In this document: in pieces, positions 40,034 to 55,432 of the stretch
Numbering within the stretch: the first letter of the stretch is position 1
Layout of the letters: each line of letters begins with the position of its first letter
Assembly: GCA_965248055.1 (NCBI GenBank)
Contig: CBDFIJ010000004.1
Coordinates: forward strand, 1,440,001-1,504,000
Direction of reading: 5' to 3'
From: Candidatus Multivoradales bacterium
GTDB lineage: Bacteria > Acidobacteriota > Thermoanaerobaculia > Multivoradales > JAHEKO01
DNA: 64,000 nucleotides
The notes under the pieces: model-generated
Databases searched by the model: none
Seen by the model: the letters and a program-made list of their open reading frames with translations, nothing else
What the model was told of the DNA's origin: nothing
Program-made: the position numbers and the translations under genes

Positions 40034-41017
40034 TCACGAATTCAGCAACTCTTCGACGGCGGCACGCTCTTCGCGCAATTCTCGATCGGTAGCGTCCATC
40101 CGCTGGCGACTGAATTCGTCGACATCCAATCCCTGAACCACTTGGTAGTCGCCACCTTGGCAGCTCACCGGAAAGGAATACACCACTCCCGGCTCGATGC
40201 CGTAGCTGCCGTTCGCCGGGATCGCCATCGAAACCCAGTCGCCTTCAGCGGTGCCGAAGGTCCAGGTGCGCATATGGTCGATCGCCGCTGACGCCGCTGA
40301 CGCCGCCGAAGAAGCGCCCCGAGCCTGAATAATCTCAGCGCCGCGCTTCTGCACCCGCGGAATAAATTCCTCTCGGGTCCAATCCTGGTCCACCAACTCG
40401 CTGGCCGCTCGATCGTCGACCGTAGCGTGAGAAATATCCGGGTATTGACTGGCTGAATGATTGCCCCAGATGGTCATCTTGCGCACATCGTTGGAGTGGG
40501 TTCCGGTCTTGGCGGCCAATTGACCCTTAGCCCGATTGTGGTCGAGTCGCGTCATGGCGGTGAACTGGCGCGGGTCCAAGTCTGGGGCGTTGTCGGCGGC
40601 GATCAAGCAATTGGTGTTGGCCGGATTGCCGACCACCAAGACTCGAACGTCTTTTGAGGCGCAGTCATTGATCGCTTTACCCTGCGGGCCAAAGATCTTG
40701 CCGTTGGCGCCCAAGAGATCGGCCCGCTCCATCCCCGCGCCACGCGGCCGGGCGCCGACCAACAGGGCGTAGTCAGCGTCTTGAAACCCTTCGCTCAAGT
40801 CAGCGGTGGCGACGATGCCCGCCAGCAGCGGAAAAGCACAGTCATTGAGCTCCATCACTACGCCGTTAAGTGCGTTCAGAGCGGGCGGAATTTCGATCAA
40901 ATGCAGAATGATTGGTTGGTCGGGGCCGAGCATGTCGCCAGCGGCAATGCGGAAGGTCAATGCGTAGCCAATGTTTCCAGCCGCCCCCGTGATGGCAACG
41001 CGAACAGGGGTTTTCAT
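40034..41017 (-). CDS. mdh: Malate dehydrogenase
   Basis: [58 protein letters not shown]. Confidence 0.97.
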
Positions 41018-41368: not shown

Positions 41369-42527
41369 AGGTACCACCCGATTTCCTGCGAGATCTTTGC
41401 AATGAATTGCGTCTCTCTCTGCATGAGCAGACGACTTCGATACATCCCCGAAGGTGGCGCCTTGGTCGAGATCACCTGCCGCACCTTCCAGGGACGCTAT
41501 CTGTTGAAGCCCTCCCCGGCTGTCAATAGCTGCATTGCAGGTGTGCTCGGGAGAGCCCAGAGGATTTATCCCGTCGAAATCCATGGCTTTGCTTTCCTCT
41601 CCAACCACTATCATCTCCTCATCACCGTCCCAGATGCCCACAGAATGGCCCAGTTCGTCGGCTACTTCAACTCCAACCTCGCCCGAGAACTCGGGCGAAT
41701 TCGAAGCTGGACCGACAAAATCTTCTCCCGCAGATATCAGGCCATTGTTGTCAGTGAAGAGGAAGCTGCCCAGGAGGGGCGCATGAAGTATCTTCTAAGT
41801 CAGAGCGTCAAAGAAGGACTGGTTAGCCATCCCACTAGATGGCTTGGCCTCCACTGCGCTAAACAGCTTCTCAAACGACAAGACTCGCTATCTGGTCGCT
41901 GGCGAAACAGGACCCAAGAAACAGTGCACTACCGAACAACAAGGGAAAGCAAGATCTTTCTGCGGACTGAGCATATCCAACTATCGCCGCCTCCTTGCTG
42001 GCAAGGACAGAGCCACCGCTGGATTGCACAGCGCTGCAAAGAGCTAATAGAACTGATCCAGAATGAGAACAAAGGGATCGAACCTATGAAACTCCCCGAT
42101 CCCGATCCCACTCAGCGGCCGGTCAAGATCAAGCGCTCACCCGCACCGATATTTCACTGCGCTTCTAGAAAGGCAAGACGCTTGCTCTATGAAGCCTACT
42201 GTTGGTTTGTGACTGCCTACCGCGATGCCTGTGAGCAGCTCAAAGCCGGGAATCTCCAAGCTGCCTTCCCGGCAGGCTCATTCCCGCCCCCCAGGCCGTT
42301 TGTAGCGTCCTGAGACACACTCAAGAGCGAGCTTCGAGAAGAAGGTGAGGGAGAGGCTTGCCCTTATGACGGCTCAGACCGTGCCAGCGACGAGACTTTC
42401 AAAACCTCGGGTCAAAGATCTGCGTTGTTTCACTGCAGTCAGGAGCAGAGCCTCGATTGTTTCAGCATTCCTTCCCACACGGAGGCCGTCTTCAAATTCC
42501 CCTGAAAATCACCTGGCACGCTCTCTG
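41369..42527 (+). mobile_element. HUH/Y1 (IS200-like, RAYT-like) element, copy 1
   Basis: Bounds taken from alignment with copy 2; left end AGGTACCACCCGATTTCCTG, right end CCCCTGAAAATCACCTGGCACGCTCTCTG (imperfect inverted pair). Confidence 0.8.
41423..42313 (+). CDS. RAYT-like / IS200-like tyrosine (HUH) transposase, 296 aa
   Basis: MSRRLR start, EITCRT, HUH motif SNHYHLL, FSRRY, candidate catalytic Tyr in MKYLLSQSVKEGLV. Confidence 0.85.
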   Translation: MSRRLRYIPEGGALVEITCRTFQGRYLLKPSPAVNSCIAGVLGRAQRIYPVEIHGFAFLSNHYHLLITVPDAHRMAQFVGYFNSNLARELGRIRSWTDKIFSRRYQAIVVSEEEAAQEGRMKYLLSQSVKEGLVSHPTRWLGLHCAKQLLKRQDSLSGRWRNRTQETVHYRTTRESKIFLRTEHIQLSPPPCWQGQSHRWIAQRCKELIELIQNENKGIEPMKLPDPDPTQRPVKIKRSPAPIFHCASRKARRLLYEAYCWFVTAYRDACEQLKAGNLQAAFPAGSFPPPRPFVAS

Positions 42528-43129
42528 CAGGAGAGCCGCAATCTTGGAATCGGTACACATATGTAAACAATCGGCCAATTCACTATGTTGATCCAGATGG
42601 GCAGTTTGACTTTCTGTCCTTTTTCAGGATCAGTGAAGAAGCAAAGAGCGAAATCCAAAAAGCGGAAGAAGCCTTTGAGGAAGCTCTGGAGCTTGATGCT
42701 AAGTTGCGACTTGGGGGTATTGGGGGAGCTGTTCAGCTCGGTCCAGGCAAAGTAGAAGGGGCGTTAGAACTAAGACTTGGGGTAGATTTGACTACGGGAG
42801 ACTCGGAACTCGAGGGAAGGGGTGTTCTAGCAATACAGGGTGGAACGATCCAAGGACGTGCCTCCGCATCAGCGCAACTTCCCATTATTGAGGGTGGCGA
42901 ACTGTTCCCAAGTGGCGTTACAGGTGACATAAATGGCGCCCTGAGGACCGACGCTACAAATTTGGCTTCAGATTCAGTCTCAGTGACTGCTAGAGTTGGG
43001 ATAGCGCGACTGTTTATCGGAGTGAATTTTGGCGCGTATGCGCGGGGTGTCTCTCACACTGCATCCGCGGTCCGAGAATTGATTCGAGGTAATCACGACC
43101 AATTTGATGTACCTATCTTTTTTCCATAA
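42527..43129 (+). pseudogene. Orphan Rhs C-terminal toxin tip (5'-truncated)
   Basis: In frame upstream of ORF 42704 lies GEPQSWNRYTYVNNRPIHYVDPDG, the Rhs core terminus; in-frame TGA at 42503 and no start codon before the motif. Confidence 0.85.
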
Positions 43130-43145
43130 CTAGAAGGGGGGGGCG

Positions 43146-43460
43146 TTGTCCGACGATGCTCGCGGAACCAGGGTTCTCCTTTTTTCGATTGCCCTACTAG
43201 GCGTAGTCGGTGGTCTTGCGTGGATAGGGATGTACGTTCTGAACGGACGAAGTGCCATACCTTTTCCCTTCCTGTTCTTGCTCTTCTTGGGCGTCTTTGG
43301 ATCGTGGGCTGGCAGCATCGTTTTGTGGACACTACTCCCGCGGCGCGGCTGGACGCATTGGCTCATTTTTCCAGTACTGGTGGTGTTTGGCGGTTTCTTT
43401 GGCTGGGTCTACATTGTGTTGCGCGTATCGAAGGCCTGGCGTAGACAAGGGTTCCGCTAG
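43146..43460 (+). CDS. Small 3-TM protein, putative Rhs immunity protein
   Basis: Directly follows the Rhs tip; G-rich RBS before TTG; three hydrophobic helices. Confidence 0.6.
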   Translation: MSDDARGTRVLLFSIALLGVVGGLAWIGMYVLNGRSAIPFPFLFLLFLGVFGSWAGSIVLWTLLPRRGWTHWLIFPVLVVFGGFFGWVYIVLRVSKAWRRQGFR

Positions 43461-43474
43461 ATAGACGTGCCACA

Positions 43475-43676
43475 CTAGGGCGTGTTAACACTAGAGACAG
43501 CACTCACAATGAGTGCGAACTGTATAAATAATGTGAAGATTATGTCCAATTTGTCGAAGCGTGAGAATATCCGACGAAACCCCTTCAAGCGACGAAACAA
43601 GCGCTCGGCTTCATTGCGCTTCTTGTACATTTCTCGGTCGTATTGCCAAGGTTGCAATCGATTGCTTTTCGGCGGC
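43475..43676 (-). mobile_element. IS5-family remnant (transposase C-terminus plus one end)
   Basis: PPKSNR...YDREMYKKRNEAERLFRRLKGFRRIFSRFDKL; terminal CTAGGGCGTGTTAACA; cut off at the 25-bp motif. Confidence 0.85.
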
Positions 43677-43677
43677 G

Positions 43678-43702
43678 AACTCCCCTGAAAATCGCCTGGC
43701 AC
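43678..43702 (+). repeat. Stand-alone copy of the Y1-element right-end motif
   Basis: AACTCCCCTGAAAATCGCCTGGCAC versus AATTCCCCTGAAAATCACCTGGCAC at 42495 and 47849. Confidence 0.85.
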
Positions 43703-43753
43703 CCTTGGCACCCTTGACTGCGGAGCGAGTCGCTTGGCTCGAACCGTGCCTAC

Positions 43754-44407
43754 TTAGACACAGTTGAAATCGCGCGCCCGTACTCCGACAACGTCGGAAT
43801 AGAGAATGCCCGGACCGAAGAACGGATCCACCATCCAAAGCCGCAGCTCGTGAATCGGGCCCGGCGATCGACACGTAACGTTAGCTTCGGCCACGCCGGA
43901 TGCCTCGGTCACAACGACCGGCTCCCCTTGATCAAAGACTGACTCGCCATCCCGAAAAATATCCAGGATGATGAATTGGAACCGCGGTTCAAAGTTGAGG
44001 TACTTCACCCGAACCCGAAGACGATTCTGATCGGAAATGCTGGATCCATTTGCGGTCAGAATCTCCATGATCTGCAGACTCCGGGTCCCATCGTTCACTG
44101 CGACTTGCAAACTCGAACTCCCGCCGCCCGAACAACTCGCCGTTACGAGCTTGGTGCCGGTCGTCAGCCAGACAGTCTCGAACGCAGTTCCCACGCCGGT
44201 CGGTTGCGAAGCACCGCCATCAGCGCTCCAATTAACCGTAGTCGGGCAACTTGAGGCAGATCCCCTCCATGTCTCGCTGGTTGCAATGTCCGCATCACCT
44301 TCCAGCAGCAAAGGCACTGCAGGCGCAAGCGGATTACTTCCGCTGCCACCACAAGCCAATGACATCAATCCGAAAACAATGAGCCCCATCAGGGTCGCCT
44401 GACGCAT
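43754..44407 (-). CDS. Hypothetical lipoprotein (beta-rich)
   Basis: MRQATLMGLIVFGLMSLAC-GGSGSNP lipobox; ATG at 44407. Confidence 0.65.
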   Translation of the reverse strand: MRQATLMGLIVFGLMSLACGGSGSNPLAPAVPLLLEGDADIATSETWRGSASSCPTTVNWSADGGASQPTGVGTAFETVWLTTGTKLVTASCSGGGSSSLQVAVNDGTRSLQIMEILTANGSSISDQNRLRVRVKYLNFEPRFQFIILDIFRDGESVFDQGEPVVVTEASGVAEANVTCRSPGPIHELRLWMVDPFFGPGILYSDVVGVRARDFNCV

Positions 44408-44456
44408 TAACCGCGATTGTAGCTTAGGTTTGCTATCGCGTATCGCCGAGCAACTC

Positions 44457-44481
44457 AATTCCCCCGAAAATCGCCTGGCAC
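44457..44481 (+). repeat. Stand-alone copy of the Y1-element right-end motif
   Basis: AATTCCCCCGAAAATCGCCTGGCAC. Confidence 0.85.
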
Positions 44482-44490
44482 CCAGTCCGA

Positions 44491-45624
44491 TTGGTAAACC
44501 CGGTCTCTCCCTCCGAAAGTCTCGACTGCTTGGATGGAAGGTTGGGGAGCTTGTCTGGTTACCGTGAAGCGGACGGCAAAGTACGAATGATCCTGCCTTA
44601 CTTGCGCGGCGATGAAGCATACGCAAGCCTTAGCACCAAGGTAGCAGAGCAACTCTCTGGTAAGGAACTTCGTGGTTTGCCGGAAAAGCGCCTATTGCGA
44701 TTTCTCCCACCCGACCGTGAGCCAGCCCCGGTTGTTGGCTGGCCACTTTCCTACTCTGCGACGGAAGACTTTTCGGGGCGATTTGTTTTTGTTGGGGCGG
44801 CTGGAAACGATAGTCATGAGACCGCTTTCGGAAAGGTGGCCGGAGTGCGCATTCACGCATGGGCTGCTCACGCGCTTCGCACCGCTTCGTTCCTGCGGCG
44901 TACCGATTATCGCTGGACTTTGCTCAGTCTGTTCGGCGCCTTCTACGTGCTTACCCTGGTGCAGGCACACGGGGGTGGGCGCCGGGACTTGATCGTTTCG
45001 GCAGCGGCACTGTCTCTTGGCTTTATCGCTGCTACTGTTGTCGCGGCCCGGTTTGGTCGTATGTGGGTCGACATTAGTTATCCGTTGATTGGGATCTGGA
45101 TCTTGACTGGGCTCCTGTCGGGCGGTGCTGTCTTACAAGCTGGTCGACGGCGGGTTGACAGCAAAGAGCCGCTTATTGTTGAAGCGGCCGGTGGCGGCGT
45201 TGGGCCTAGTGATGTATTCCTCAGTCACAATTCGAAGAACAAGCCACTGGTAAGAGAATTGGCGGATGCGTTGCAAGCCCGTGAGCTTGCTGTTTGGCTT
45301 GATGAATGGGAGTTAGTACCTGGCCGTAGCTGGCAGGAAGAATTAGAAACAGCCATCAGCACCACCCGTTCGGCAGCGGTATTGGTGGGTGCGCAGGGAC
45401 TAGGACCATGGGAAATCCCGGAGATGAGAGCGTGTATTTCCGAGTGCGTGGATCGAGGCATGCCGGTAATCCCGGTACTTCTTCCTGGTGCCTCCCGCGC
45501 ACCAGATTTGCCGCTTTTCCTCAGAAGCTTCACCTGGGTTGACTTGCGCAAGGGGTTGAGCGAAAAGGGATTGGATCGCTTGCAGTGGGGGATTACGGGT
45601 GTGAAACCAAAACGCGCTCGCTAG
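44491..45624 (+). CDS. CHASE2-like domain, three TM helices and a TIR domain; probably 5'-truncated
   Basis: EADGKVR, FSGRFVFVG..GVRIHAWA (CHASE2 C-terminal half), three TMs, then DVFLSHNSKNK...VWLDEWELVPG...GLGPWEIPEM...VIPVLLPG (TIR_2). Confidence 0.8.
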   Translation: MVNPVSPSESLDCLDGRLGSLSGYREADGKVRMILPYLRGDEAYASLSTKVAEQLSGKELRGLPEKRLLRFLPPDREPAPVVGWPLSYSATEDFSGRFVFVGAAGNDSHETAFGKVAGVRIHAWAAHALRTASFLRRTDYRWTLLSLFGAFYVLTLVQAHGGGRRDLIVSAAALSLGFIAATVVAARFGRMWVDISYPLIGIWILTGLLSGGAVLQAGRRRVDSKEPLIVEAAGGGVGPSDVFLSHNSKNKPLVRELADALQARELAVWLDEWELVPGRSWQEELETAISTTRSAAVLVGAQGLGPWEIPEMRACISECVDRGMPVIPVLLPGASRAPDLPLFLRSFTWVDLRKGLSEKGLDRLQWGITGVKPKRAR

Positions 45625-45779
45625 CAATGCTGGGGGAACCAAACCACTCCAGCGTTGAGTCGGGTTCTTGCAGTTTCCTGCGACCAAGTGACCGCTATTT
45701 AAACTCACTACGCAGCAAGTACCTGCCATTGGTATGTTTGCCATGGAGGTTCTCTTGATCGTCCACCAAAAGGAGCACC

Positions 45780-45995
45780 ATGCTGCAATTCGTAAAAGTT
45801 GTTTTTCCGAAAGATCGTGCGGTCAATATTGACGGCGACCCGTCTGGACGGGTTGGTGATGTGTTGCGGGTGCAGAAGGGGAGGCATACCTTCAACATGG
45901 GGGCACCGCGGGACTACAAGCCCAAGTGGCGCAGGCCGATGGTCGAAGGGACCAATCCACTGAGTCCGATGAAGGTGACCTTTGAACCGAAGTAG
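45780..45995 (+). CDS. Small hypothetical protein (PEGA-like beta fold?)
   Basis: AAGGAG RBS; RAVNIDG..GRVGDVLRVQKGRHTF. Confidence 0.65.
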   Translation: MLQFVKVVFPKDRAVNIDGDPSGRVGDVLRVQKGRHTFNMGAPRDYKPKWRRPMVEGTNPLSPMKVTFEPK

Positions 45996-46129
45996 TCGGA
46001 TCGTGGTCCTAGGGGTCTGTTGGTTTGGACTAGCCTGCGCTCATCTTCAGCCCACTCAGGAGTTGCAGCGGTGGGATGGGAAAACTGGCTACCGATTTAG
46101 CAACCTGGATCAAGGTGAGAACTCCGACT
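45982..46129 (+). pseudogene. N-terminal fragment of a lipoprotein (resembles the start of patatin-like lipoproteins), interrupted by an IS3-family end
   Basis: GLAC-AHLQPTQELQRWDGKTGYRFSNL...NSDS, then the IS end; no catalytic motif remains, so the family call is tentative. Confidence 0.5.
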
Positions 46130-46708
46130 CGGAACCTGTCAACAACTTTGAGACAGTTGGCAGAATTAATTAGTGAATCGGGACAACCTCCTTGGTGCGC
46201 TGATGTTTGGGTGGGTTGATCCAGACGGCCCTCGGTAATAGCTGAACGGTCGGTCTTCCACGGACAAATCGCTGTGGGTTGTTTCGCCAAGCTTGGTCAA
46301 GGGCCAGTTGACGGATCTTGAGCTTGTGGTCGGCCTTGCCGCAGTGGACATCTTCGGGTGTCAGCATGGCGATGCCGGCGTGCCGGTGCTGGGTGTTGTA
46401 CCAGATAAAGAACGACCTGCAAAAGGCGATAGCGTCCTCGATCGAGCCGAACCGATCGGGAAAGCTCGGGTGATACTTGAGGGTCTTGAATTGGGCTTCG
46501 GAGAAGGGATTATCGTTGGAGATGCGAGGCCGCGAGAACGACTGAGAGATACCAAGCCGTACGAGGAGTCGTCCGGTGTCCTTGGCGGTCATCGGCGAGC
46601 CCCGATCACTGTGTAGGGTTAGCTGATTCTTGGGAATGCCTTGCTTGGTTGAGGTCTCCTTGAGAAGCCTTTGGGCTAAGGCCTCGCGTTCGTGCTCGGC
46701 GAGCATCC
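46130..46708 (-). mobile_element. IS3-family remnant (integrase core C-terminus plus one end)
   Basis: LTLHSDRGSPM, SRPRISNDNPFSEAQFKTLKY, WYNTQHRH; end TGTCTCAAAGTTGTTGACAGGTTCCG on the minus strand; truncated by Y1 copy 2. Confidence 0.85.
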
Positions 46709-46713
46709 CTAAA

Positions 46714-47881
46714 AGGTACCACCCGATTTCCTGGGAGATCTTTGGGGTGAATTGCGTCTCTCTCTGCATGAGCAGACGACTTCGATACATCCCCGAAGGT
46801 GGTGCCACAGTCGAGATCACTTGCCGCACCTTCCAGGGACGCTATCTGTTGAAGCCCTCCCCGGCTGTCAATAGCTGCATTGCAGGTGTACTCGGCCGAG
46901 CCCAGAGGCTTTATCCAGTCGAAATCCATGGCTTTGCTTTCCTCTCCAACCACTATCATCTCCTCATCACCGTCCCAGATGCCCACAGAATGGCCCAGTT
47001 CGTCGGCTACTTCAACTCCAACCTTGCCCGAGAACTCGGGCGAATTCGAAGCTGGACCGACAAGATCTTCTCCCGTAGATATCAGGCCATTGTTGTCAGT
47101 GAAGAGGAAGCTGCCCAGGAGGGGCGCATGAAGTATCTTCTAAGTCAGAGCGTCAAAGAAGGACTGGTTAGCCATCCCACTAGATGGCTTGGCCTCCACT
47201 GCGCTAAACAGCTTCTCAAACGACAAGACTCGCTATCTGGTCGCTGGCGAAACAGGACCCAAGAAACAGTGCACTACCGAACAACAAGGGAAAGCAAGAT
47301 CTTTCTGCGGACTGAGCATATCCAACTATCGCCGCCTCCTTGCTGGCAAGGACAGAGCCACCGCTGGATTGCACAGCGCTGCAAAGAGCTAATAGAACTG
47401 ATCCAGAATGAGAACAAAGGGATCGAACCTATGAAACTCCCCGATCCCGATCCCACTCAGCGGCCGGTCAAGATCAAGCGCTCACCCGCACCGATATTTC
47501 ACTGCGCTTCTAGAAAGGCAAGACGCTTGCTCTATGAAGCCTACTGTTGGTTTGTGACTGCCTACCGCGATGCCTGTGAGCAGCTCAAAGCCGGGAATCT
47601 CCAAGCTGCCTTCCCGGCAGGCTCATTCCCGCCCCCCAGGCCGTTTGTAGCGTCCTGAGACACACTCAAGAGCGAGCTTCGAGAAGAATGTGGGGAGAGG
47701 CTTGCCCCTATGATGGCTCTACGATGGCTCAGGCCGAGCCAGCGACGAGACTTTCAAACCTCGGTTCAATAATCTACGTCGTTTCACTGCAGTCAGGAGC
47801 AGAGCCTCGATTGTTTCAGCATTTCTTCCCACACGGAGGCCGTCTTCAAATTCCCCTGAAAATCACCTGGCACGCTCTCTG
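46714..47881 (+). mobile_element. HUH/Y1 (RAYT-like) element, copy 2, direct repeat of copy 1
   Basis: Near-identical to 41369-42527; followed by partial re-duplications of the right-end motif out to about 47915. Confidence 0.8.
46768..47658 (+). CDS. RAYT-like / IS200-like tyrosine transposase, copy 2
   Basis: Same 296-aa protein as 41423-42313 apart from two visible substitutions (GGAL/GGAT, QRIY/QRLY). Confidence 0.85.
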   Translation: MSRRLRYIPEGGATVEITCRTFQGRYLLKPSPAVNSCIAGVLGRAQRLYPVEIHGFAFLSNHYHLLITVPDAHRMAQFVGYFNSNLARELGRIRSWTDKIFSRRYQAIVVSEEEAAQEGRMKYLLSQSVKEGLVSHPTRWLGLHCAKQLLKRQDSLSGRWRNRTQETVHYRTTRESKIFLRTEHIQLSPPPCWQGQSHRWIAQRCKELIELIQNENKGIEPMKLPDPDPTQRPVKIKRSPAPIFHCASRKARRLLYEAYCWFVTAYRDACEQLKAGNLQAAFPAGSFPPPRPFVAS

Positions 47882-48131
47882 GCACGCTCTCGAGAATCAC
47901 CTGGTACCCTCTCTGTAGACCCAAGAGAGTGCGAATAGAAGCTCGTCCTGAGGTTAGATCCGAATCTAAAGAACGCATGACCGATGGAAAGAAAACCCTT
48001 GACTGGACCGCCCGACTCATAGAACCCGCTTTTCTGCGGCAGTCCGGGTCAACTCCAATTCTGCACCCTTGGCCTTGGGCCACAGCACCCTAAAAGGCAA
48101 AGGCCGGCTTGGCACCTAGTCCAGTCTGCAC

Positions 48132-49192: not shown

Positions 49193-50516
49193 CTAGCAGC
49201 CTGCTGAAAAACGGGCAACGGAGCTAATTTCAGTGGTCATAACGGTCGAAGTACTTTGAATGTGGAGACGAATCAAGGTGGCTGGCGAGTTGAGGGTGTT
49301 GGTGACCCCTTGGGTCAGCTCTTCGATTCGCCCTACCGGGTGATTCGAGCGATTTGAGGAGCACTTGGGATAGAAATTCGTCATGTTGGCGCGCTCAGAT
49401 TGGCTATTCGGAGCAAGTTAAACGCTGTTGCCGCAAAAGTGAAAGACCAACCGATGCGGGCTACGCCTCGAAACATCGGTCTGCGTTGCAGTCCGTACTG
49501 TTTGAGCCAGCCGAAGGGTGCCTCGACTCTCGGTCGTCTCGCCAAGCTGATCTCGTAACCTGCGTGGCGAGTGGTGCGTCGGTCAATCCGGCTGCGGCGA
49601 TTCTTGGTGCTTTGCGCTACGTGAGGTGTCGCATTCAGCTTCCTCGCATTCTCTACAAACGCTCGGTTGTCATAGCCCTTGTCAGCACCCACCGTGACGC
49701 GATGATTGCTAGCCCGCTGCTCCAGCATGGCCAGAGCCGCTGTTGTCTCACCGTTGCCGGTGACGATGTTGACCTCGGTGTTGACAATCATCCCGTGCCG
49801 GTTCTCGACCAGAATGTTGCCCCGGTAACTTAGTTTTGCTTCCTTACCACGGCCTTTTCGCGACAGCCGAGACTCGGGGTCGGTCGTCGAAGCGTGCGTT
49901 TGGTTCAACCGCTTCTGGCCTCGGAAGTCCGCTCCACCGTCCAGAGGTTTAACCTCTTCGTCCTTTGGCCGAAAGCTCTTGTGCGAAGCCCAAGCCTCGA
50001 TCAGTGTGCCATCAACGCTGAAGTGATCCGGTGACAGCAGATCACGGTCCTCGGCTTGAGACAGCACCGCTGCAAACAGTTCTTCCGCGATCGAACCTTC
50101 GAGCAAGCGCTCTCGGTTCTTGCAAAACGTCGTCGCGTCCCACACCCGCTCGTCGATACCAAGACCGACAAACCAGCGAAATAGAAGGTTGTACTCAAGT
50201 TGCTCCATCAGCTGGCGTTCACTACGCACGCTGAAGAGCACTTGAAGCAGCAATGCGCGGAGCAGACGCTCGGGGGGAATCGAAGGACGACCACTCGAAG
50301 CGTAGATCGTCTCAAAACGCTCCGATAGCTCTCCAAGAGCTTCGTCCATCAAACTTCGGATCCGCCGCAACGGATGAGACCGAGGAATTCGCCGTTCCAG
50401 GTCAACGTAGCTGAACATTGATCCCTGACCTTGATCCGATCCACGCATCAAAACCTCCTATTCCCAATTATAGAATCGTTATGGTCAGGTGGTGGGGTTT
50501 TTCAGCAAGCTCCTAG
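49193..50516 (-). mobile_element. Intact IS5-family insertion sequence
   Basis: Terminal inverted repeats GCAGCCTGCTGAAAAAC / GTTTTTCAGCAAGCTCC with CTAG at both flanks. Confidence 0.9.
49381..50451 (-). CDS. IS5 family DDE transposase
   Basis: GRPSIPPERLLRALLLQVLFSVRSERQLMEQL, FSVDGTLIEAWAS, GADKGYD, RPRVEAPFGWLK. Confidence 0.95.
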   Translation of the reverse strand: MMRGSDQGQGSMFSYVDLERRIPRSHPLRRIRSLMDEALGELSERFETIYASSGRPSIPPERLLRALLLQVLFSVRSERQLMEQLEYNLLFRWFVGLGIDERVWDATTFCKNRERLLEGSIAEELFAAVLSQAEDRDLLSPDHFSVDGTLIEAWASHKSFRPKDEEVKPLDGGADFRGQKRLNQTHASTTDPESRLSRKGRGKEAKLSYRGNILVENRHGMIVNTEVNIVTGNGETTAALAMLEQRASNHRVTVGADKGYDNRAFVENARKLNATPHVAQSTKNRRSRIDRRTTRHAGYEISLARRPRVEAPFGWLKQYGLQRRPMFRGVARIGWSFTFAATAFNLLRIANLSAPT

Positions 50517-51226
50517 ATCGTTGTCCGGTCGCTCCAATAATACAGTGTTGCCAGGTTGGCTGAATAGAGCTCAAATCCACAACTCGTCGCTAATTCGTGC
50601 GCATAACGGATTGGGCGGGTCAGCTGCAGCGATGCGCGGGTTGCGATCGCCTCTTTCAGGCTATCGAAGATGTTCATCGAGGCTCCCTCCGGGGTTGGAT
50701 TGAGTCGAGCAGGCAACTGGCTAACCGTGGAGAGGCTCCCGATCCCGATCCTGTTCCCTTCTCGCAACCCGGGCTCTTGCCCACAAACTCGCACGAGCCG
50801 CCTACTTCATGATGAGGGATCAAGCGCCTTACCAGCCCGAAAGGCTGTTTGGTTAATGAGATCGAGGCCGCCAACCAGAAAGGTGCTGTGTTAACAACCA
50901 ATCATCTGAGTGGAAGCGGCCTCGATCTCTCTTACTTGCACCGGTGGCGCACGACTCCGTCAACCAACCAGGGGCTGGATCAAGCTACTAGCTCGAAAAC
51001 CATGCGACTGAATCCCTTCTCATGAAAACGGAATCGAGACCAACGGGTTTCTGGGGCACGAGACTGCCTGGGGTACCGAGGACTGATAACTCGACTACCT
51101 AGATCCTGATGAGTGGCTGGAGCGTCATCGACTCCTACTTAATGAGACCCAAAAACTAGCGCTGCCTTTCTTTGATCACTCAATACCGGGACGCCCCCCA
51201 CCCGGAAAGAAAAGATGTACCCCTTG

Positions 51227-51282
51227 ACATAACGCCGCCTAATAAGTGGCACCCTTTCGCCCTTTGCGGCGCATTGTTATCC
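51227..51282 (-). other. Integron attC site of the SRPBCC cassette (short, possibly degenerate)
   Basis: Minus strand GGATAAC...GGCGGC-GTTATGT; GGATAAC is the exact reverse complement of this cassette's GTTATCC start. Confidence 0.7.
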
Positions 51283-51357: not shown

Positions 51358-51822
51358 CTATGAAGTTGCATCTTGATTCGATTGAACTTTATCCGCGAGC
51401 CCTTCCAGATTACCATCGAGTACCTTTCCCATCATCAATTTCATCATTGTTTGACCTAGTAGCCATCCGAAAGGACCATATTTCACGCTATAGTCCATGC
51501 CCCACGTTACTCTCGTCCGCGCACTATCTAGCGGCTCGACTGACAACTCTGCGTGCATTTCGTTAAGCGGCATTGCTGTCATTTCCGATAAACGGACGCG
51601 ATAACTCTGTTTTTCCTCCCACTGGGTCACCTCTTCCACCACTGAGGTGCCATTGTCGAAATTGCAGCGCCGTTTCGAACCGACCCCGTCTTCGCCGTCG
51701 GTAAGTGCGTCTACAGATTTTATCTGCGGAGCGAACTCATCAATGTGCATGAAGCGACTAATAACCGCCCATACGGCCTCTGGTTTGGCGTCTATATCGA
51801 GAGTTCGTTCATAATGTATCAT
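51358..51822 (-). CDS. SRPBCC (polyketide cyclase/START) family protein, integron cassette 2
   Basis: IDAKPEAVWAVI, GVGSKRRCNF, EEVTQWEE, TRVTWGMDY; flanked by attC sites; visibly more AT-rich. Confidence 0.85.
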   Translation of the reverse strand: MIHYERTLDIDAKPEAVWAVISRFMHIDEFAPQIKSVDALTDGEDGVGSKRRCNFDNGTSVVEEVTQWEEKQSYRVRLSEMTAMPLNEMHAELSVEPLDSARTRVTWGMDYSVKYGPFGWLLGQTMMKLMMGKVLDGNLEGLADKVQSNQDATS

Positions 51823-51882
51823 TTTGATTCCTCAAATGGTTTACTTGTTGGGTTCAACTCTAAGAACCAGTTTTTTTAGTTC

Positions 51883-51945
51883 GGATAACGCCTTGCCGAT
51901 CAGCGGCGGCCCGGAGGGCCGTCCGTCTGCATCGGCTTGTTGGGC
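51883..51945 (-). other. Integron attC site of cassette 1
   Basis: Minus strand GCCCAAC-AAGCCGATGCAGACGGACGGCCCTCCGGGCCGCCGCTGATCGGCAAGGC-GTTATCC; imperfect palindrome with RYYYAAC and GTT cores. Confidence 0.9.
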
Positions 51946-51960
51946 GGGCAACCCACGTTG

Positions 51961-52734
51961 CTAGGCCCGTCGCAAGACCCAGATGGCACAGAGCACTTCC
52001 GTACCGAGAATCTGCGTCTCACGTTCCTGCCTCGCCACATACTCGTCAATCAACTGCTCGAAGGCGGGATGGCTTGCTCTGACGAGACTCGCCCTCTGTC
52101 GGATCAGGTCGGTGTTCCTCTGGTTGACCGACCGTGTCTGCTCCGTCGGGCAGATGACTTCCTGGGCCACCACGTCACCACAGGCCGTCAATCGGCGAAG
52201 TGTCTCCGAGTGACCAGCATATCCTTCAGCCCCCGGCAGACGCGCCACACCGTCCGCCAGGAAGCCCTCCTCGATTACGATGTACCCGCCCGCGCGAACC
52301 AGCCTCCGAAGGCCTGCAATGGTCTGCTCATAGTCCCCCAACACAGGCCCGACGCTCAACAGGAGGACCACATCGTACTGCTCTTCCTGCCCGAGCAGAT
52401 TCCGAATGTCTCCCTGCTCGAAGCGACATCTATGGGAGACACCTCGCTCCGTCGCTAGCGCCAGCGCAGCCTGCAGAAACGGCTGGAAGGCGTCGATGCC
52501 CTCGACTCGGGCGCCCAGCTGCTCAGCAAGGGCCACGGCCACCGCGCCCTTCCCGCAGGCCAGATCGAGAACGGTGGAATCCGGCTCCACTCCAACCGAC
52601 TCGAGAGCGGAAACAACCTGTTCGGCCGAAGGACCCAACTCCCACAGGTCGGTCAGGAGCTCTGGTAGGAGGGGCAAAAGCCGTACGTCGGTCTCCATCG
52701 CTTGCGCGACCGACTCGTCCAGGTCCAGGGTCAT
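51961..52734 (-). CDS. Class I SAM-dependent methyltransferase, integron cassette 1
   Basis: [30 protein letters not shown]; lies between attI and attC. Confidence 0.85.
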
Positions 52735-52761
52735 CCTAAAAACTCCATCCGGCGCGGCTCC

Positions 52762-52768
52762 GTCCAAC
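52762..52768 (-). other. Probable attI crossover core
   Basis: GTTGGAC (GTTRRRY) between intI and the first cassette; one mismatch to the complement of GCCCAAC. Confidence 0.65.
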
Positions 52769-52815
52769 ATCCAATGGACCGAAACATTGCTGTACAGTAC
52801 GTAAATGAGCGTGCT

Positions 52816-53805
52816 ATGTCAATGTTGAAGCGAGCGCCTGGTGAACTTGCAAAGATGGTCCACGAGGTGGCGCGCATACGGCACTTGAGTCCGCGCACGG
52901 AGAATGCATACCTGGGCTGGATCAAGCGATTCGTCAGGTTTCACGACCTTAAACACCCTCTCGACCTCGAAGAACCGGCGGTGCCGTCATTTCTTGGCCA
53001 TTTGGCCGTTAGCCGAAAGGTCTCTGCCTCTACCCAGAACCAAGCCCTAAACGCGCTGGTGTTTTTGTACCGGGATGTACTCAAACGCCCGCTGGACACG
53101 CTGGATGATTTTCCTAGAGCTCGACGCAAGAAGACCCTCCCAACGGTTCTATCGCGCCGCGAGATCCAGCTATTGCTGACCGAACTGACAGGTGTCCACT
53201 GGCTGTTCACAGCGCTTGCCTATGGGGGAGGATTGCGCGTCAGCGAACTGGTGCAACTGCGAGTTAAAGACCTTGATCTGGATACCCTCCGCATCACGGT
53301 GCGTTCGGGAAAGGGAGACAAGGACCGGCTGACGCTGATTGCCAAACAAGCGAAATTGCCGCTGCAGGAACGTCTGGATCGTCTCCGCCAACAATTTGGA
53401 AACCACCCACGGGTGGCGGTCGCAATCCCGCAAGCACTAGCTCGCAAGTATCCCTACGCGGGAACCCAGTGGCCTTGGCAGTATCTGTTCCCTTCTACCA
53501 AAGTACACATTGTTGAGGGAACCCAGATGCGATACCACGCCTCAACCGCGACAGTGCAAAACGGACTGGCTCGAGCCGCCGCATCGGTGGGCATCGGGAA
53601 AAGAGTGACGCCTCACGTGTTGCGACACTCTTTCGCCACCCACCTGGTTGAGGACGGCATCGACATCCGAACGATTCAACGACTACTGGGACACGCAGAC
53701 CTTCGCACCACCATGATCTATACACAACTTGCGACCTCCCCGGAACTGCACAGTCCGCTAGACGCCCTTGGAGATGGCGCGTCACCACCACAGTGGGTCC
53801 TTTGA
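52816..53805 (+). CDS. intI: Integron integrase
   Basis: [43 protein letters not shown], IntI-specific [37 protein letters not shown]. Confidence 0.95.
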
Positions 53806-53887: not shown

Positions 53888-55432
53888 GTGTCCAACTGGC
53901 TCAACATTGCTGACGAATTCTTGACTGCTAACGCAACAGGCGATCGTCGTGACCGTGCTGCGATCCTGACCACTGACCGCACCTGGACCTACGGCGAAGT
54001 CGACGAACTCGCCAATCGCTACGCCAACGCCCTGACCCACGCCGGCCTGCGCCGAGAGGAGCGGGTGTTGCTAGCGATGGCGGACGGGGCCTCTTGGGTG
54101 GGAGCGTTTTTCGGCATCTTGAAGGCCGGGGGTGTGGTGGTGATGGTGAATCCGCACCTAGCCACGGAAAACCTGACCCGGATCTTTGACTACGTTGCTG
54201 CACCGTGGGGGCTGGTGGATTCGGGAGTGCGGGATTCCTTTGCCGCAGCTGCCGCTGCCGCGGAAACCGCGCCGCAACTGCTCCTTGTCGGCGAGGATCT
54301 CGACCCCGAAAATCCATCGTCGGATACCGACTTCGCTACCGTACCCAGCCACATCGACGACCCAGCCATTTTCCTTTTCTCCGGCGGAACGACCGGACTG
54401 CCGAAGGCGGTGGTGCAGACGCATCGCTCGTTTCTCAATACCACCCGTCTCTACGCCCAGCGGACGCTGGGCTACAACGCCGACGACATCACCCTGGCGG
54501 TGCCCAAGCTGTTTTTTGGTTATGCCACCGGGTCGAGCCTGCTGTTTCCCTTTTCGGTCGGGGCGTCGACGGTTCTCTTTCCCGAGCACCCTACGCCTGA
54601 GGTGCTGTTTGACCACATCGAGCACTTTCGCCCGACCATTCTGATCAACGTGCCCAAGATGATTCACCAGATGGTGCAGGCGGCTGCGGAGCGCGAGCAG
54701 CCGGTGGACGCCAGCTCTCTGCGTTTTGCTACCTCGGCCGGGGAAGCTCTACCCGAACCCCTGCATCAAAAATGGAACCAGGCTTTCGGTTGCGATCTCT
54801 ACGACGGACTGGGGACTGCCGAGATGTGGCATGTGTTTTTGACCAATCGACCAGGAGCGGTTCGGCCAGGCACTTTGGGGCAACCGGTCGAAGGGTTCGA
54901 TGTCCGGGTGCGCGACGAACAGGGACACAATCTCAAGTCGGGTGAAATCGGCCGTCTTTGGGTTGCGGGCGAGTCACGAGCGATCGGCTACTGGCGCAAC
55001 GCGGCCAAATCAGCCGAGGCGTTTCGTGGACGCTGGTTTGTCGGTGGAGATTTGGTCAGCCGTGATGCAGATGGTTTCTTCACCTACCACGGCCGTTCGG
55101 ATGACGTGCTCAAGGTATCGGGGAAATGGCTAGCTCCCAAAGAGGTGGAAGACTGCTTGGTCGCCCACCCAGAGATTCAACGCTGTGCGGTGGTCGGCAT
55201 CGAGGACAGTGCCGGGCTTACCCAGCCCTGTGCCTTTGTTCTGGCGGCGTCAAAAGCTGACCTCTCCGAACAGGCGGTCAAGGATTACGTGCTAGCGCGG
55301 CTCGAGCCCTATAAACATCCGCGCAGAGTGGTGTTTGTTGACGAGTTCCCGCTCACTCACCTGGGTAAAATCGACCGCGGCAAGTTGCGCTCAGGTTTGC
55401 AGGGGACACAATACCCGAAACCTATTCCTTGA
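53888..55432 (+). CDS. Benzoate/2-aminobenzoate-CoA ligase family protein
   Basis: FSGGTTGLPKAV, PKLFFGYATG, SAGEALP, DGLGTAEMWHVFLTN, GRSDDVLKVSGKW, GKIDR. Confidence 0.9.
   Translation: MSNWLNIADEFLTANATGDRRDRAAILTTDRTWTYGEVDELANRYANALTHAGLRREERVLLAMADGASWVGAFFGILKAGGVVVMVNPHLATENLTRIFDYVAAPWGLVDSGVRDSFAAAAAAAETAPQLLLVGEDLDPENPSSDTDFATVPSHIDDPAIFLFSGGTTGLPKAVVQTHRSFLNTTRLYAQRTLGYNADDITLAVPKLFFGYATGSSLLFPFSVGASTVLFPEHPTPEVLFDHIEHFRPTILINVPKMIHQMVQAAAEREQPVDASSLRFATSAGEALPEPLHQKWNQAFGCDLYDGLGTAEMWHVFLTNRPGAVRPGTLGQPVEGFDVRVRDEQGHNLKSGEIGRLWVAGESRAIGYWRNAAKSAEAFRGRWFVGGDLVSRDADGFFTYHGRSDDVLKVSGKWLAPKEVEDCLVAHPEIQRCAVVGIEDSAGLTQPCAFVLAASKADLSEQAVKDYVLARLEPYKHPRRVVFVDEFPLTHLGKIDRGKLRSGLQGTQYPKPIP

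Follow-up and report, generated by a model that had tools for sequence, protein, structure and literature searches.

The DNA analysed here is a stretch of 64,000 nucleotides (the window) from the genome of a Candidatus Multivoradales bacterium (contig CBDFIJ010000004.1, positions 1,440,001 to 1,504,000; positions elsewhere in the genome carry the prefix C4). Between the mdh gene (40034-41017) and a gene for an AMP-binding (acyl-CoA) ligase (53888-55432) it holds an array of broken genes and mobile-element remnants, among them two direct copies of an insertion sequence (IS)-like element with an HUH Y1 transposase (the Y1 element). As a preliminary description of the region had stated, these two copies (41370-42527 and 46715-47881) enclose about 4.2 kb, or 4,187 bp. 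The same description drew attention to a 25-bp motif, AAYTCCCCYGAAAATCRCCTGGCAC, at the joints of the array. This motif forms the right end of the element, as one of its two terminal inverted repeats (TIRs); the element is multicopy and about 1.16 kb long. Extra ends, short reiterations of end sequence (stutters) and copies truncated at one end are a family-wide habit and not a peculiarity of the window. The features of the array and its surroundings are listed below (ORF, open reading frame).

41370-42527, plus strand: Y1 element copy 1, with its left TIR from 41370 (GGTACCACCCGATTT...) and coding sequence at 41402-42313
42495-42519, plus strand: right TIR unit of copy 1, followed by the tail GCTCTCTG at 42520-42527
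42528-43129 (stop), plus strand: Rhs-type C-terminal module without a start, with the motif RYTYVNNRPIHYVDPDG at 42551-42601; unique in the genome
43146-43460, plus strand: ORF for a hydrophobic protein of 104 aa, a candidate immunity gene; unique in the genome
43461-43677, minus strand: 3' stump of an IS5-family element, profile positions 199-256 of 258, broken at 43676/43677
43678-43702, plus strand: solo right-TIR unit (solo 2), with the stutter TGGCACCCT x2 at 43697-43714
43754-44407, minus strand: intact ORF of 217 aa, a lipoprotein as read from its N-terminus, with no family match; unique in the genome
44457-44481, plus strand: solo right-TIR unit (solo 3), with the 7-nt tail CCAGTCC, to 44488
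44489-46708, plus strand: 2.2-kb segment, an approximately 99% identical copy of C4:316757-320298
44491-45624, plus strand: 3' two-thirds of a CHASE2-TIR gene, starting at CHASE2 profile position 105 of 257
45780-45995, plus strand: ORF of 71 aa, within the CHASE2-TIR segment
46130-46708, plus strand: first 579 bp of an IS3 element, transposase profile positions 252-369 of 369, cut by the left end of copy 2
46715-47881, plus strand: Y1 element copy 2, with its left TIR from 46715 and coding sequence at 46747-47658
47849-47873, plus strand: right TIR unit of copy 2, followed by its tail at 47874-47881
47868-47891, plus strand: stutter TGGCACGCTCTC x2, overlapping the right end of copy 2
47892-47908, plus strand: short (partial) end unit GAGAATCACCTGGTAC / GAGAATCACCTGGTACC, in which GGTACC is also the start of a left TIR
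up to 47917, plus strand: filler CTCTCTGTA after the short end unit
47918-48024, plus strand: last 107 bp of an IS110-family element, ending ...CTCATAGAA
48025-48122, plus strand: remainder of a miniature Y1 element, from the left-TIR remainder CCCGCTTTTCTGCGG to the right-end-like GGCTTGGCAC (48100-48115) and the tail CTAGTCC
49193-50516: intact IS5
52702-53805, plus strand: integron integrase, TIGR02249, 343.8 bits against a cut-off of 265

The motif occurs in four exact copies (42495, 43678, 44457 and 47849), all on the plus strand, where 100 shuffles of the sequence lead one to expect none. Exact matching thus bears out the number and the single orientation originally given, as well as the partial copy at 47892 and the short duplications that follow two of the motifs (TGGCACCCT and TGGCACGCTCTC, each present twice). 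In the whole 3.4-Mb genome no copy other than these four was found with up to five mismatches allowed. Over 1,176 aligned bases the two enclosing elements share 96.3% identity; the proteins that they encode differ at 3 residues (99% identity).

The left end had been described as an imperfect inversion of the motif. This holds, with support that comes chiefly from the paralogues. Local alignment of the left ends with the inverted motif gives scores of 18.5-21.5, against a shuffle mean of 12.7-13.8 (standard deviation about 2.8), but the best shuffles reach 27.0 for copy 1 and 24.0 for copy 2, both higher than the observed values. The assignment therefore depends more on the GT.CCA/GATT pattern that is common to the paralogues. 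We also considered whether the motif might form a hairpin or an attC site; DNA folding of the four sites produced weak, non-homologous stems only, and the motif does not fold on itself, as had been said of it. A role as a genome-wide repetitive extragenic palindromic (REP) sequence was ruled out, since the four copies are all local.

The element ends in the array lie at true breakpoints. After copy 1 the Rhs-type gene does begin mid-sequence, 15 in-frame residues ahead of the RYTYVNNRPIHYVDPDG motif. At the second motif an IS5 transposase is cut, and short-read contigs from intact IS5 copies continue beyond 43676, where the window stump stops. After the third, the CHASE2-TIR gene starts mid-domain and is about 218 codons short of the intact 596-codon paralogous locus, its intact parent being 1.16 Mb distant. 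The left end of copy 2 interrupts an IS3 transposase, and here again contigs from intact copies run on past 46708. All four of these cuts are as first described. Between solo 3 and the segment with the CHASE2-TIR gene lie 7 nt, and between that segment and the left end of copy 2 a further 6 nt. Its source locus (C4:316757-320298) includes the intact CHASE2-TIR ORF together with an IS5 that is missing from the window copy. The wider region C4:313985-320298 has the intact 596-codon ORF between two inverted IS3 copies, with the IS5 inserted downstream; an IS3 composite transposon could therefore have delivered the segment.

No matching flanks were found around either element copy in the window, the missing halves of the Rhs gene, the IS5 and the IS3 do not lie across the adjacent element, and no second genomic copy of any composite unit from the window was found. 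The 104-aa hydrophobic ORF may be the immunity gene of the Rhs-type module, and we read the 217-aa ORF as a putative lipoprotein from its N-terminus alone. The two other Rhs-type C-terminal junction motifs of the genome, at C4:2230657-2234024 and 2228306-2228372, are preceded by an open frame of only about 170 codons, and there is a solo Y1 right-end unit some 2.3 kb away.

Because much of the region is repeated, the possibility that the array is an assembly chimera across repeats has to be considered. Two 96% identical element copies and fragments of multicopy ISs are present, and the IS5 and IS3 stumps show a 5-15 fold increase in read depth. Short-read contigs, however, bridge the right-end junction of copy 1 (42427-43559) and both solo junctions (43614-44518), without a single differing letter over 42498-43559, 43625-44518 and 44489-46013. 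These contigs were assembled from four runs of one sample, which is probably the source sample of the genome itself, so that the bridging is a consistency check and not independent support. We consider a chimera extremely unlikely. One irregularity was seen in the contig that joins the left flank to copy 1 (41458-41731): it has letters of the copy 2 type at 10-13 positions in two of the four runs (13 in run X1; 10, plus one site shared with run X2, in run X4). This reflects either graph simplification between the copies or a real exchange.

The transposase ORF is 303 aa long when read from the first ATG (41402) and 296 aa from the ATG at 41423. Copy 2 has a GTG at the first start and the homologues begin at the second Met, which makes the 296-aa form the likelier product. 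The protein is a member of the HUH Y1 superfamily by cut-off, motif and fold. It passes the Pfam Y1_Tnp (PF01797) cut-off of 23 narrowly (25.8 bits for copy 1, 24.9 for copy 2). H69 and H71 (in SNHYHLL) and Y130 (in KYLLSQ/H) are invariant across 25 aligned homologues, giving a tyrosine motif Y-x3-Q/H, and in a profile search of solved structures SNHYHLL and KYLLSH align with DHVHLL and KYIESQ of the ISDra2 TnpA (E 2e-4). An AlphaFold model (pLDDT 80) has as its best structural match the Escherichia coli RAYT 4ER8 (TM score 0.70 on the target, rmsd 3.3), followed by the TnpA proteins of ISDra2, IS200 and IS608. There are 27 PDB matches at E<=0.001, headed by 4ER8, 2XQC, 2F4F and 2A6O, with TM scores of 0.6-0.7 on the target.

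Residues from about 160 to 303 form a conserved additional half (PLPCW, SPAPxFH, WFVAAYR, FPxGSFPP) for which no PDB match and no recognised family were found. The NCBIfam model REP_Tyr_transpos (NF047646) matches the protein in part, with 46.5 bits against a cut-off of 80. The clade is related to RAYTs and TIRYTs and is common in Acidobacteriota. The assignment of the motif to the end of an HUH/Y1 transposase element is upheld.

In this genome tblastn gives 17 hits, and nhmmer with a profile of the full element gives 23 (8 full copies, 5 with only the left end kept, 9 with only the right end kept and 1 internal piece). The paralogues share 60-65% protein identity and each has its own version of the ends. 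The left TIR, directly upstream of the gene, has the consensus (A)G|GT[ACG]CCA[CG]C..GA[AT]T.., and the right TIR, about 200 bp downstream of the gene, ..A[AT]T[CT][AG]CCTGG[N]AC|CT... Flanks tend to the form ..AG|left end and right end|CT.., but vary, and no target duplication was found at the window copies or at the pair of identical copies described below. Family matches occur in 35 of 41 related genomes, with up to 25 per genome; this tally counts one unpublished genome (G002) whose sequence was not used. A protein database contains 1,221 homologues, many on contigs of 1-2 kb, and the best 80 of 366 reference-genome loci all come from metagenome-assembled genomes of Acidobacteriota/Thermoanaerobaculia. 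Eight of ten clusters are oriented head-on to replication, a bias that is suggestive only, since the clusters are few, and that fits weakly with a strand-specific, single-strand chemistry. We also scanned public metagenomes for GAAAATCRCCTGGCAC. This gave at least 119 stretches, but among the 80 loci fetched tblastn (E<=1e-5) found nothing related to the transposase, and three further bases of the motif are shared by only 3 of the 80, so these are chance matches or solo units that cannot be interpreted.

A unit of about 25 nt corresponds to one TIR, and across the family such units are repeated outside both ends of the element and are oriented as the adjacent end. They occur solo, in tandem, or as stutters of 9-14 nt made up of the last bases of the element and the first of the flank. 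The smallest recurring unit, measured to the end of GGNAC, is about 25 nt in three lineages: 25 nt for the window type, 26 nt for the AATAATCGCCTGGGAC type, and 25, 23 and 28 nt at three loci in relatives (L002, L023 and L046). The commonest unit type has 20 copies, 16 of them inside one 20-kb stretch. Distant relatives very often have, beyond the right end, either more copies of its last 20-32 nt or stutters that consist of GGCAC and the next 6-10 nt.

Reiteration was counted at 61 distant Acidobacteriota loci with enough flank. A direct repeat of at least 10 nt lies 100-700 nt downstream at 49 of the 61, compared with 8 of 61 in shuffled sequence. Repeated GGNAC words are found downstream at 29 loci and upstream at 3, and repeated GTNCC words upstream at 15 and downstream at 4; each end is thus re-copied on its own outer side.

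A relative of the same genus (G001) provides a close example. The right end of its element is GAAAATCGCCTGGCACCCTTCCTC, with the same core and CCT tail as the two solo units of the window (in solo 2, the ATCGCC core and CCT), and after it the last 234 bp are duplicated in tandem; the mdh-ligase gap of G001 also contains a solo end. Many partial copies in the family keep one intact end. Among the nine with the right end kept, four start immediately behind another right-end core and a tail of 5-13 nt, and a fifth comes after GGTACCA. The window motif itself is restricted to its four local sites; ends of the family coincide with joints and truncated copies elsewhere. A separate accumulation, which repeats the pattern of the window on a larger scale, lies at C4:1381559-1401353 (20 kb, 39-59 kb upstream of the window start), where there are 20 right-end cores, all on the plus strand, the only minus-strand hit being a left end. 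Between the cores are truncated sister Y1 copies, an IS256 stump and genes mostly on the minus strand (PKD/RHS repeat, eCIS-core domain and TPR proteins, and unknowns).

Movement of such an element together with unrelated DNA is indicated by two 100% identical copies of a 3,253-bp unit, at C4:1142304(+) and C4:2107526(-). The unit starts 4 nt before the left TIR and ends ...TGGCACCT / ...CATCTCATCTGGCACCT, which is the third right end. It contains the transposase gene, two internal right-end units, an IS110-family element and about 0.7 kb of unrelated DNA that includes a terminal word of the IS5 type. There is no target duplication. The flank of one of the copies has a fresh stutter, GCACCTATCTCTAC x2. 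As read from the sequence, the left end and the distal right end defined the unit that moved.

The IS110 element in this unit lies 6 nt inside the third right end. Elements of this kind (1.39 kb; NCBIfam 'IS110 family RNA-guided transposase', 236 bits) are found in the window at 47918-48024 and at C4:1379056-1380443, C4:1144161-1145548 and C4:2104282-2105669. Where both flanks can be read, the insertion point is between GTGCCA and the following [GC]CC of a Y1 TIR. Since the point is the same each time, the IS110 element seems to home into Y1 ends.

We regard it as probable that the array is not a dedicated cassette system but the product of insertions and end-anchored rearrangements that piled up next to the integron, in a gap that is hypervariable. 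By analogy with RAYT, which cuts at C|T beside a REP, the transposase would bind the TIR unit and cut single-stranded DNA at the unit boundary. The freed 3'-OH, or the tyrosine-linked 5' end, would then sometimes be joined to the wrong partner, and products of three kinds would result. A distal right end could be used, with passenger DNA carried along; end-anchored deletions would place an end beside the interior of a gene or sister copy; and end units could be re-copied, which would be seen as stutters and solo units. The 4.2 kb in the window would have arisen from such events, together with insertions of IS5, IS3 and IS110, accumulated in the mdh-ligase gap.

A number of observations weigh against this interpretation. 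The inner (5') boundaries of the solo units join DNA that is not part of the element (the interior of the IS5, a promoter region). Simple end-anchored deletion does not explain these joints, and an extra assumption is needed: the transposase might cut on both sides of the unit, as RAYT does, or the bound unit might be protected. The two solo units could, moreover, descend from one ancestor, in which case no special mechanism is needed to account for their having the same 5' boundary. No motif is common to the acceptor points; sites resembling left ends were apparent by eye, but when the 16 junctions were scored with an ungapped weight matrix derived from 10 true left ends, none was significant at p<0.05 relative to 20,000 random windows. 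The IS3 composite could have brought the CHASE2-TIR segment, the Y1 ends only trimming it. In the 3,253-bp unit the IS110 element splits the distal end and leaves 6 nt of TIR outside, so that either very little of the end suffices or the IS110 entered both copies later. Finally, no circle or alternative joint is listed among the assembled contigs of the one sample, which cannot show rare forms.

The units of about 25 nt may also be portable joining sites, at which the transposase cuts and ligates to unrelated DNA, although we put this forward only tentatively. If true, the elements would copy and carry gene fragments from the left end to any downstream unit, re-copying their own ends as they do so. 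Bacteria would then have a counterpart to the capture of gene fragments by Helitrons, and the family would provide an active and tractable model for the spread of short repeats by RAYT/TIRYT enzymes.

The alternative with the most to recommend it, though we think it doubtful, is passive decay: the elements would have inserted normally, slippage, illegitimate recombination and homologous exchange between ISs would have done the remainder, and the ends would persist since short remnants are harmless. The region is indeed crowded with IS stumps (IS5, IS3, IS110 and IS256), the gap differs between congeners, the acceptor points are without a motif, and an IS3 composite could account for the CHASE2-TIR copy. 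Random truncation of a 1,150-bp element should, however, rarely leave less than 45 bp, yet units of 11-41 nt dominate and their boundary at about 25 nt is the same in different lineages. Nor would decay predict the orientation-specific reiteration on each side (29 against 4 downstream and 15 against 3 upstream, n=61), a stutter at one of two insertions that are 100% identical and hence very recent, or the four of nine truncated copies that abut another end core and tail.

The preliminary description favoured a system that uses isolated end motifs to capture, delete or shuffle adjacent DNA and so builds a cassette-like array. Part of this stands: the ends are at true breakpoints and the 3,253-bp pair is evidence of passenger movement. 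A dedicated capture system, with isolated end motifs acting like recombination sites to build a usable cassette array, is nevertheless very unlikely. In its favour are the co-oriented ends that separate gene-bearing segments both in the window and at C4:1.38-1.40 Mb (20 ends; Rhs/PKD, eCIS-core and unknowns), and the unit from left end to distal right end that has moved with passenger DNA. The segments, however, are broken, without starts or missing domains. In the window they are dead fragments (the Rhs tail, two-thirds of a CHASE2-TIR gene, and stumps of IS5, IS3 and IS110), genes between ends lie on either strand, and the composites have no second copy. The reiterated ends surround ordinary copies in many genomes, mostly with nothing between them, and most of the extra ends in relatives are tens of bases apart and without cargo; the motif, too, lacks an attC-like fold. 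Another explanation is that the solo units are domesticated REP-like host sites (transcript ends or protein binding) and the transposase a RAYT-like housekeeping enzyme. RAYT is the best structural match, homologues are named 'REP element-mobilizing transposase RayT' in the sources, and the NCBIfam REP_Tyr_transpos match, if partial, is there. Against these stand the score of 46.5 where the family cut-off is 80, the many copies per genome, identical ones included, the small number of units (four of the window type) and their clustering beside elements, the absence of a hairpin, and a tyrosine motif of Y-x3-Q/H and not the Y-x3-NP given for class 2 in PMC6006769. This makes domestication highly improbable.

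The surroundings of the array are themselves variable. The distance between mdh and the ligase gene is 12.8 kb in this genome and 3.9 kb in that of the congener G001, and the genes in the gap differ. The true integron that had been placed next to the array is present, as judged by its TIGR02249 integrase. Its cassettes are on the minus strand, to the left of the integrase; no candidate ORF for an integron integrase was seen by eye in the corresponding gap of G001. An attC-like hairpin (GCCCAAC...GTTATCC), also found by eye, follows the first cassette, a methyltransferase, at 51822-52000 (minus strand). The array thus belongs to a wider site at which mobile DNA of various kinds has accumulated. 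A repeat with the ending ...CCTAATAAGTGGCAC and a length of about 220 bp occurs in the window (at about 51030-51252) and at C4:1145757, 1145868, 1386575, 1393280 and 3286999; there are six long and two short copies, with units of the GGCAC type at both borders. The window copy lies inside the cassette array, and its end and flank mimic half of an attC site.

Compared by published description, the closest described kind is the TIRtron/TIRYT. To call the system undescribed, as was first proposed, was too strong, because TIRtrons and TIRYTs were named in 2013 (Di Nocera, De Gregorio & Rocco 2013, PMC3733652). In the passages concerned these are RAYT-like Y1 genes with flanking TIRs, copies of which occur as singles, dimers and clusters, and a protein group specific to Acidobacteria is mentioned (PMC3733652; PMC6006769). 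The corresponding sections of Quentin et al. 2018 (PMC6006769), who took up the TIRYTs, give Y-x3-NP for the RAYT-type class 2 and, for subclass 2.1/TIRYT, helix-turn-helix tails and a median length of 238 aa; Table 1 of that paper has no row that combines NHYH, Y-x3-Q and about 300 aa. The element described here resembles the TIRtron/TIRYT in having a RAYT-like Y1 gene with TIRs in place of REPs and TIR copies elsewhere as singles, dimers and clusters. It differs in that its TIRs start with GT[ACG]CCA and not with the GGGGWSAS motif given for many TIRYTs, and in its protein of 296-303 aa, with a C-terminal half of no recognised family and the tyrosine motif Y-x3-Q/H. The passages on TIRYTs in PMC3733652 and PMC6006769 contain no mention of stutters, one-end truncated copies or passenger mobilisation. 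Stutters, one-end truncated copies and a composite unit were not found in full text either, a search in which subscription journals and ISfinder could not be included and which turned up only the 2013 and 2018 papers on TIRtrons and TIRYTs. Within the literature so covered, the clade and the reiteration of its ends look undescribed.

With RAYTs and REPtrons the element shares the best structural match and a gene flanked by inverted copies of a short cognate sequence. According to the relevant part of Corneloup et al. 2021 (PMC8266576), RAYT (TnpA-REP, 4ER8) cuts at C|T 5' or 3' of the REP, which would give discrete short units like those of about 25 nt here; the flank after GGNAC in the present family usually starts with CT. 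Unlike RAYT/REPtron, the element is multicopy and IS-like, has no hairpin and no GTAG, its units are few and local, and its REP_Tyr_transpos score is 46.5 against the cut-off of 80.

The IS200/IS605 group (IS608, ISDra2) includes the nearest solved proteins by sequence and has a motif of the Y-x3-Q type. The likeness extends to the lack of any target duplication seen, the multiple copies, the weak head-on bias and, in some distant relatives, a left-end hairpin (by eye). The transposase, however, is twice as long (296-303 aa against the small, core-only TnpA of about 130-150 aa), and in this lineage there are imperfect inverted repeats, no subterminal hairpins and no tnpB. Members of that group have subterminal hairpins at both ends and no inverted repeats, and the right end here is without a stable hairpin.

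IS91/ISCR elements and Helitrons are rolling-circle HUH elements with one-ended transposition and gene-fragment capture. The present family is like them in the apparent skipping of a proximal end in favour of a distal one, with flanking DNA carried along, and in arrays of copies truncated at one end. The present transposase, unlike theirs, has a single conserved tyrosine and the Y1 fold, as against two tyrosines or a Rep-helicase, and the ends are inverted repeats; capture of the Helitron type is deduced here from one event. The region resembles an integron array in its short co-oriented site between gene-bearing segments, and a true IntI gene lies 5 kb away. The motif, in contrast, has no attC fold, and both strands carry segments, which are fragments; an attC-like hairpin is clear (by eye) only beside the cassettes proximal to the integrase.

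How the short cognate repeats of the RAYT type spread is unsettled, and the examples known so far exist in single copy and are difficult to observe at work. The present clade is mobile, with identical and many partial copies, and has short, defined ends and legible products (stutters, one-end copies and a composite), so that the chemistry could become testable. For annotation, short repeats that lie in one orientation between fragments of genes need not be a cassette system but can be the ends of transposons, and an IS110-family element can home into such ends. Set beside these known systems, the finding is real and more general than first reading suggested, and it is not a new system.

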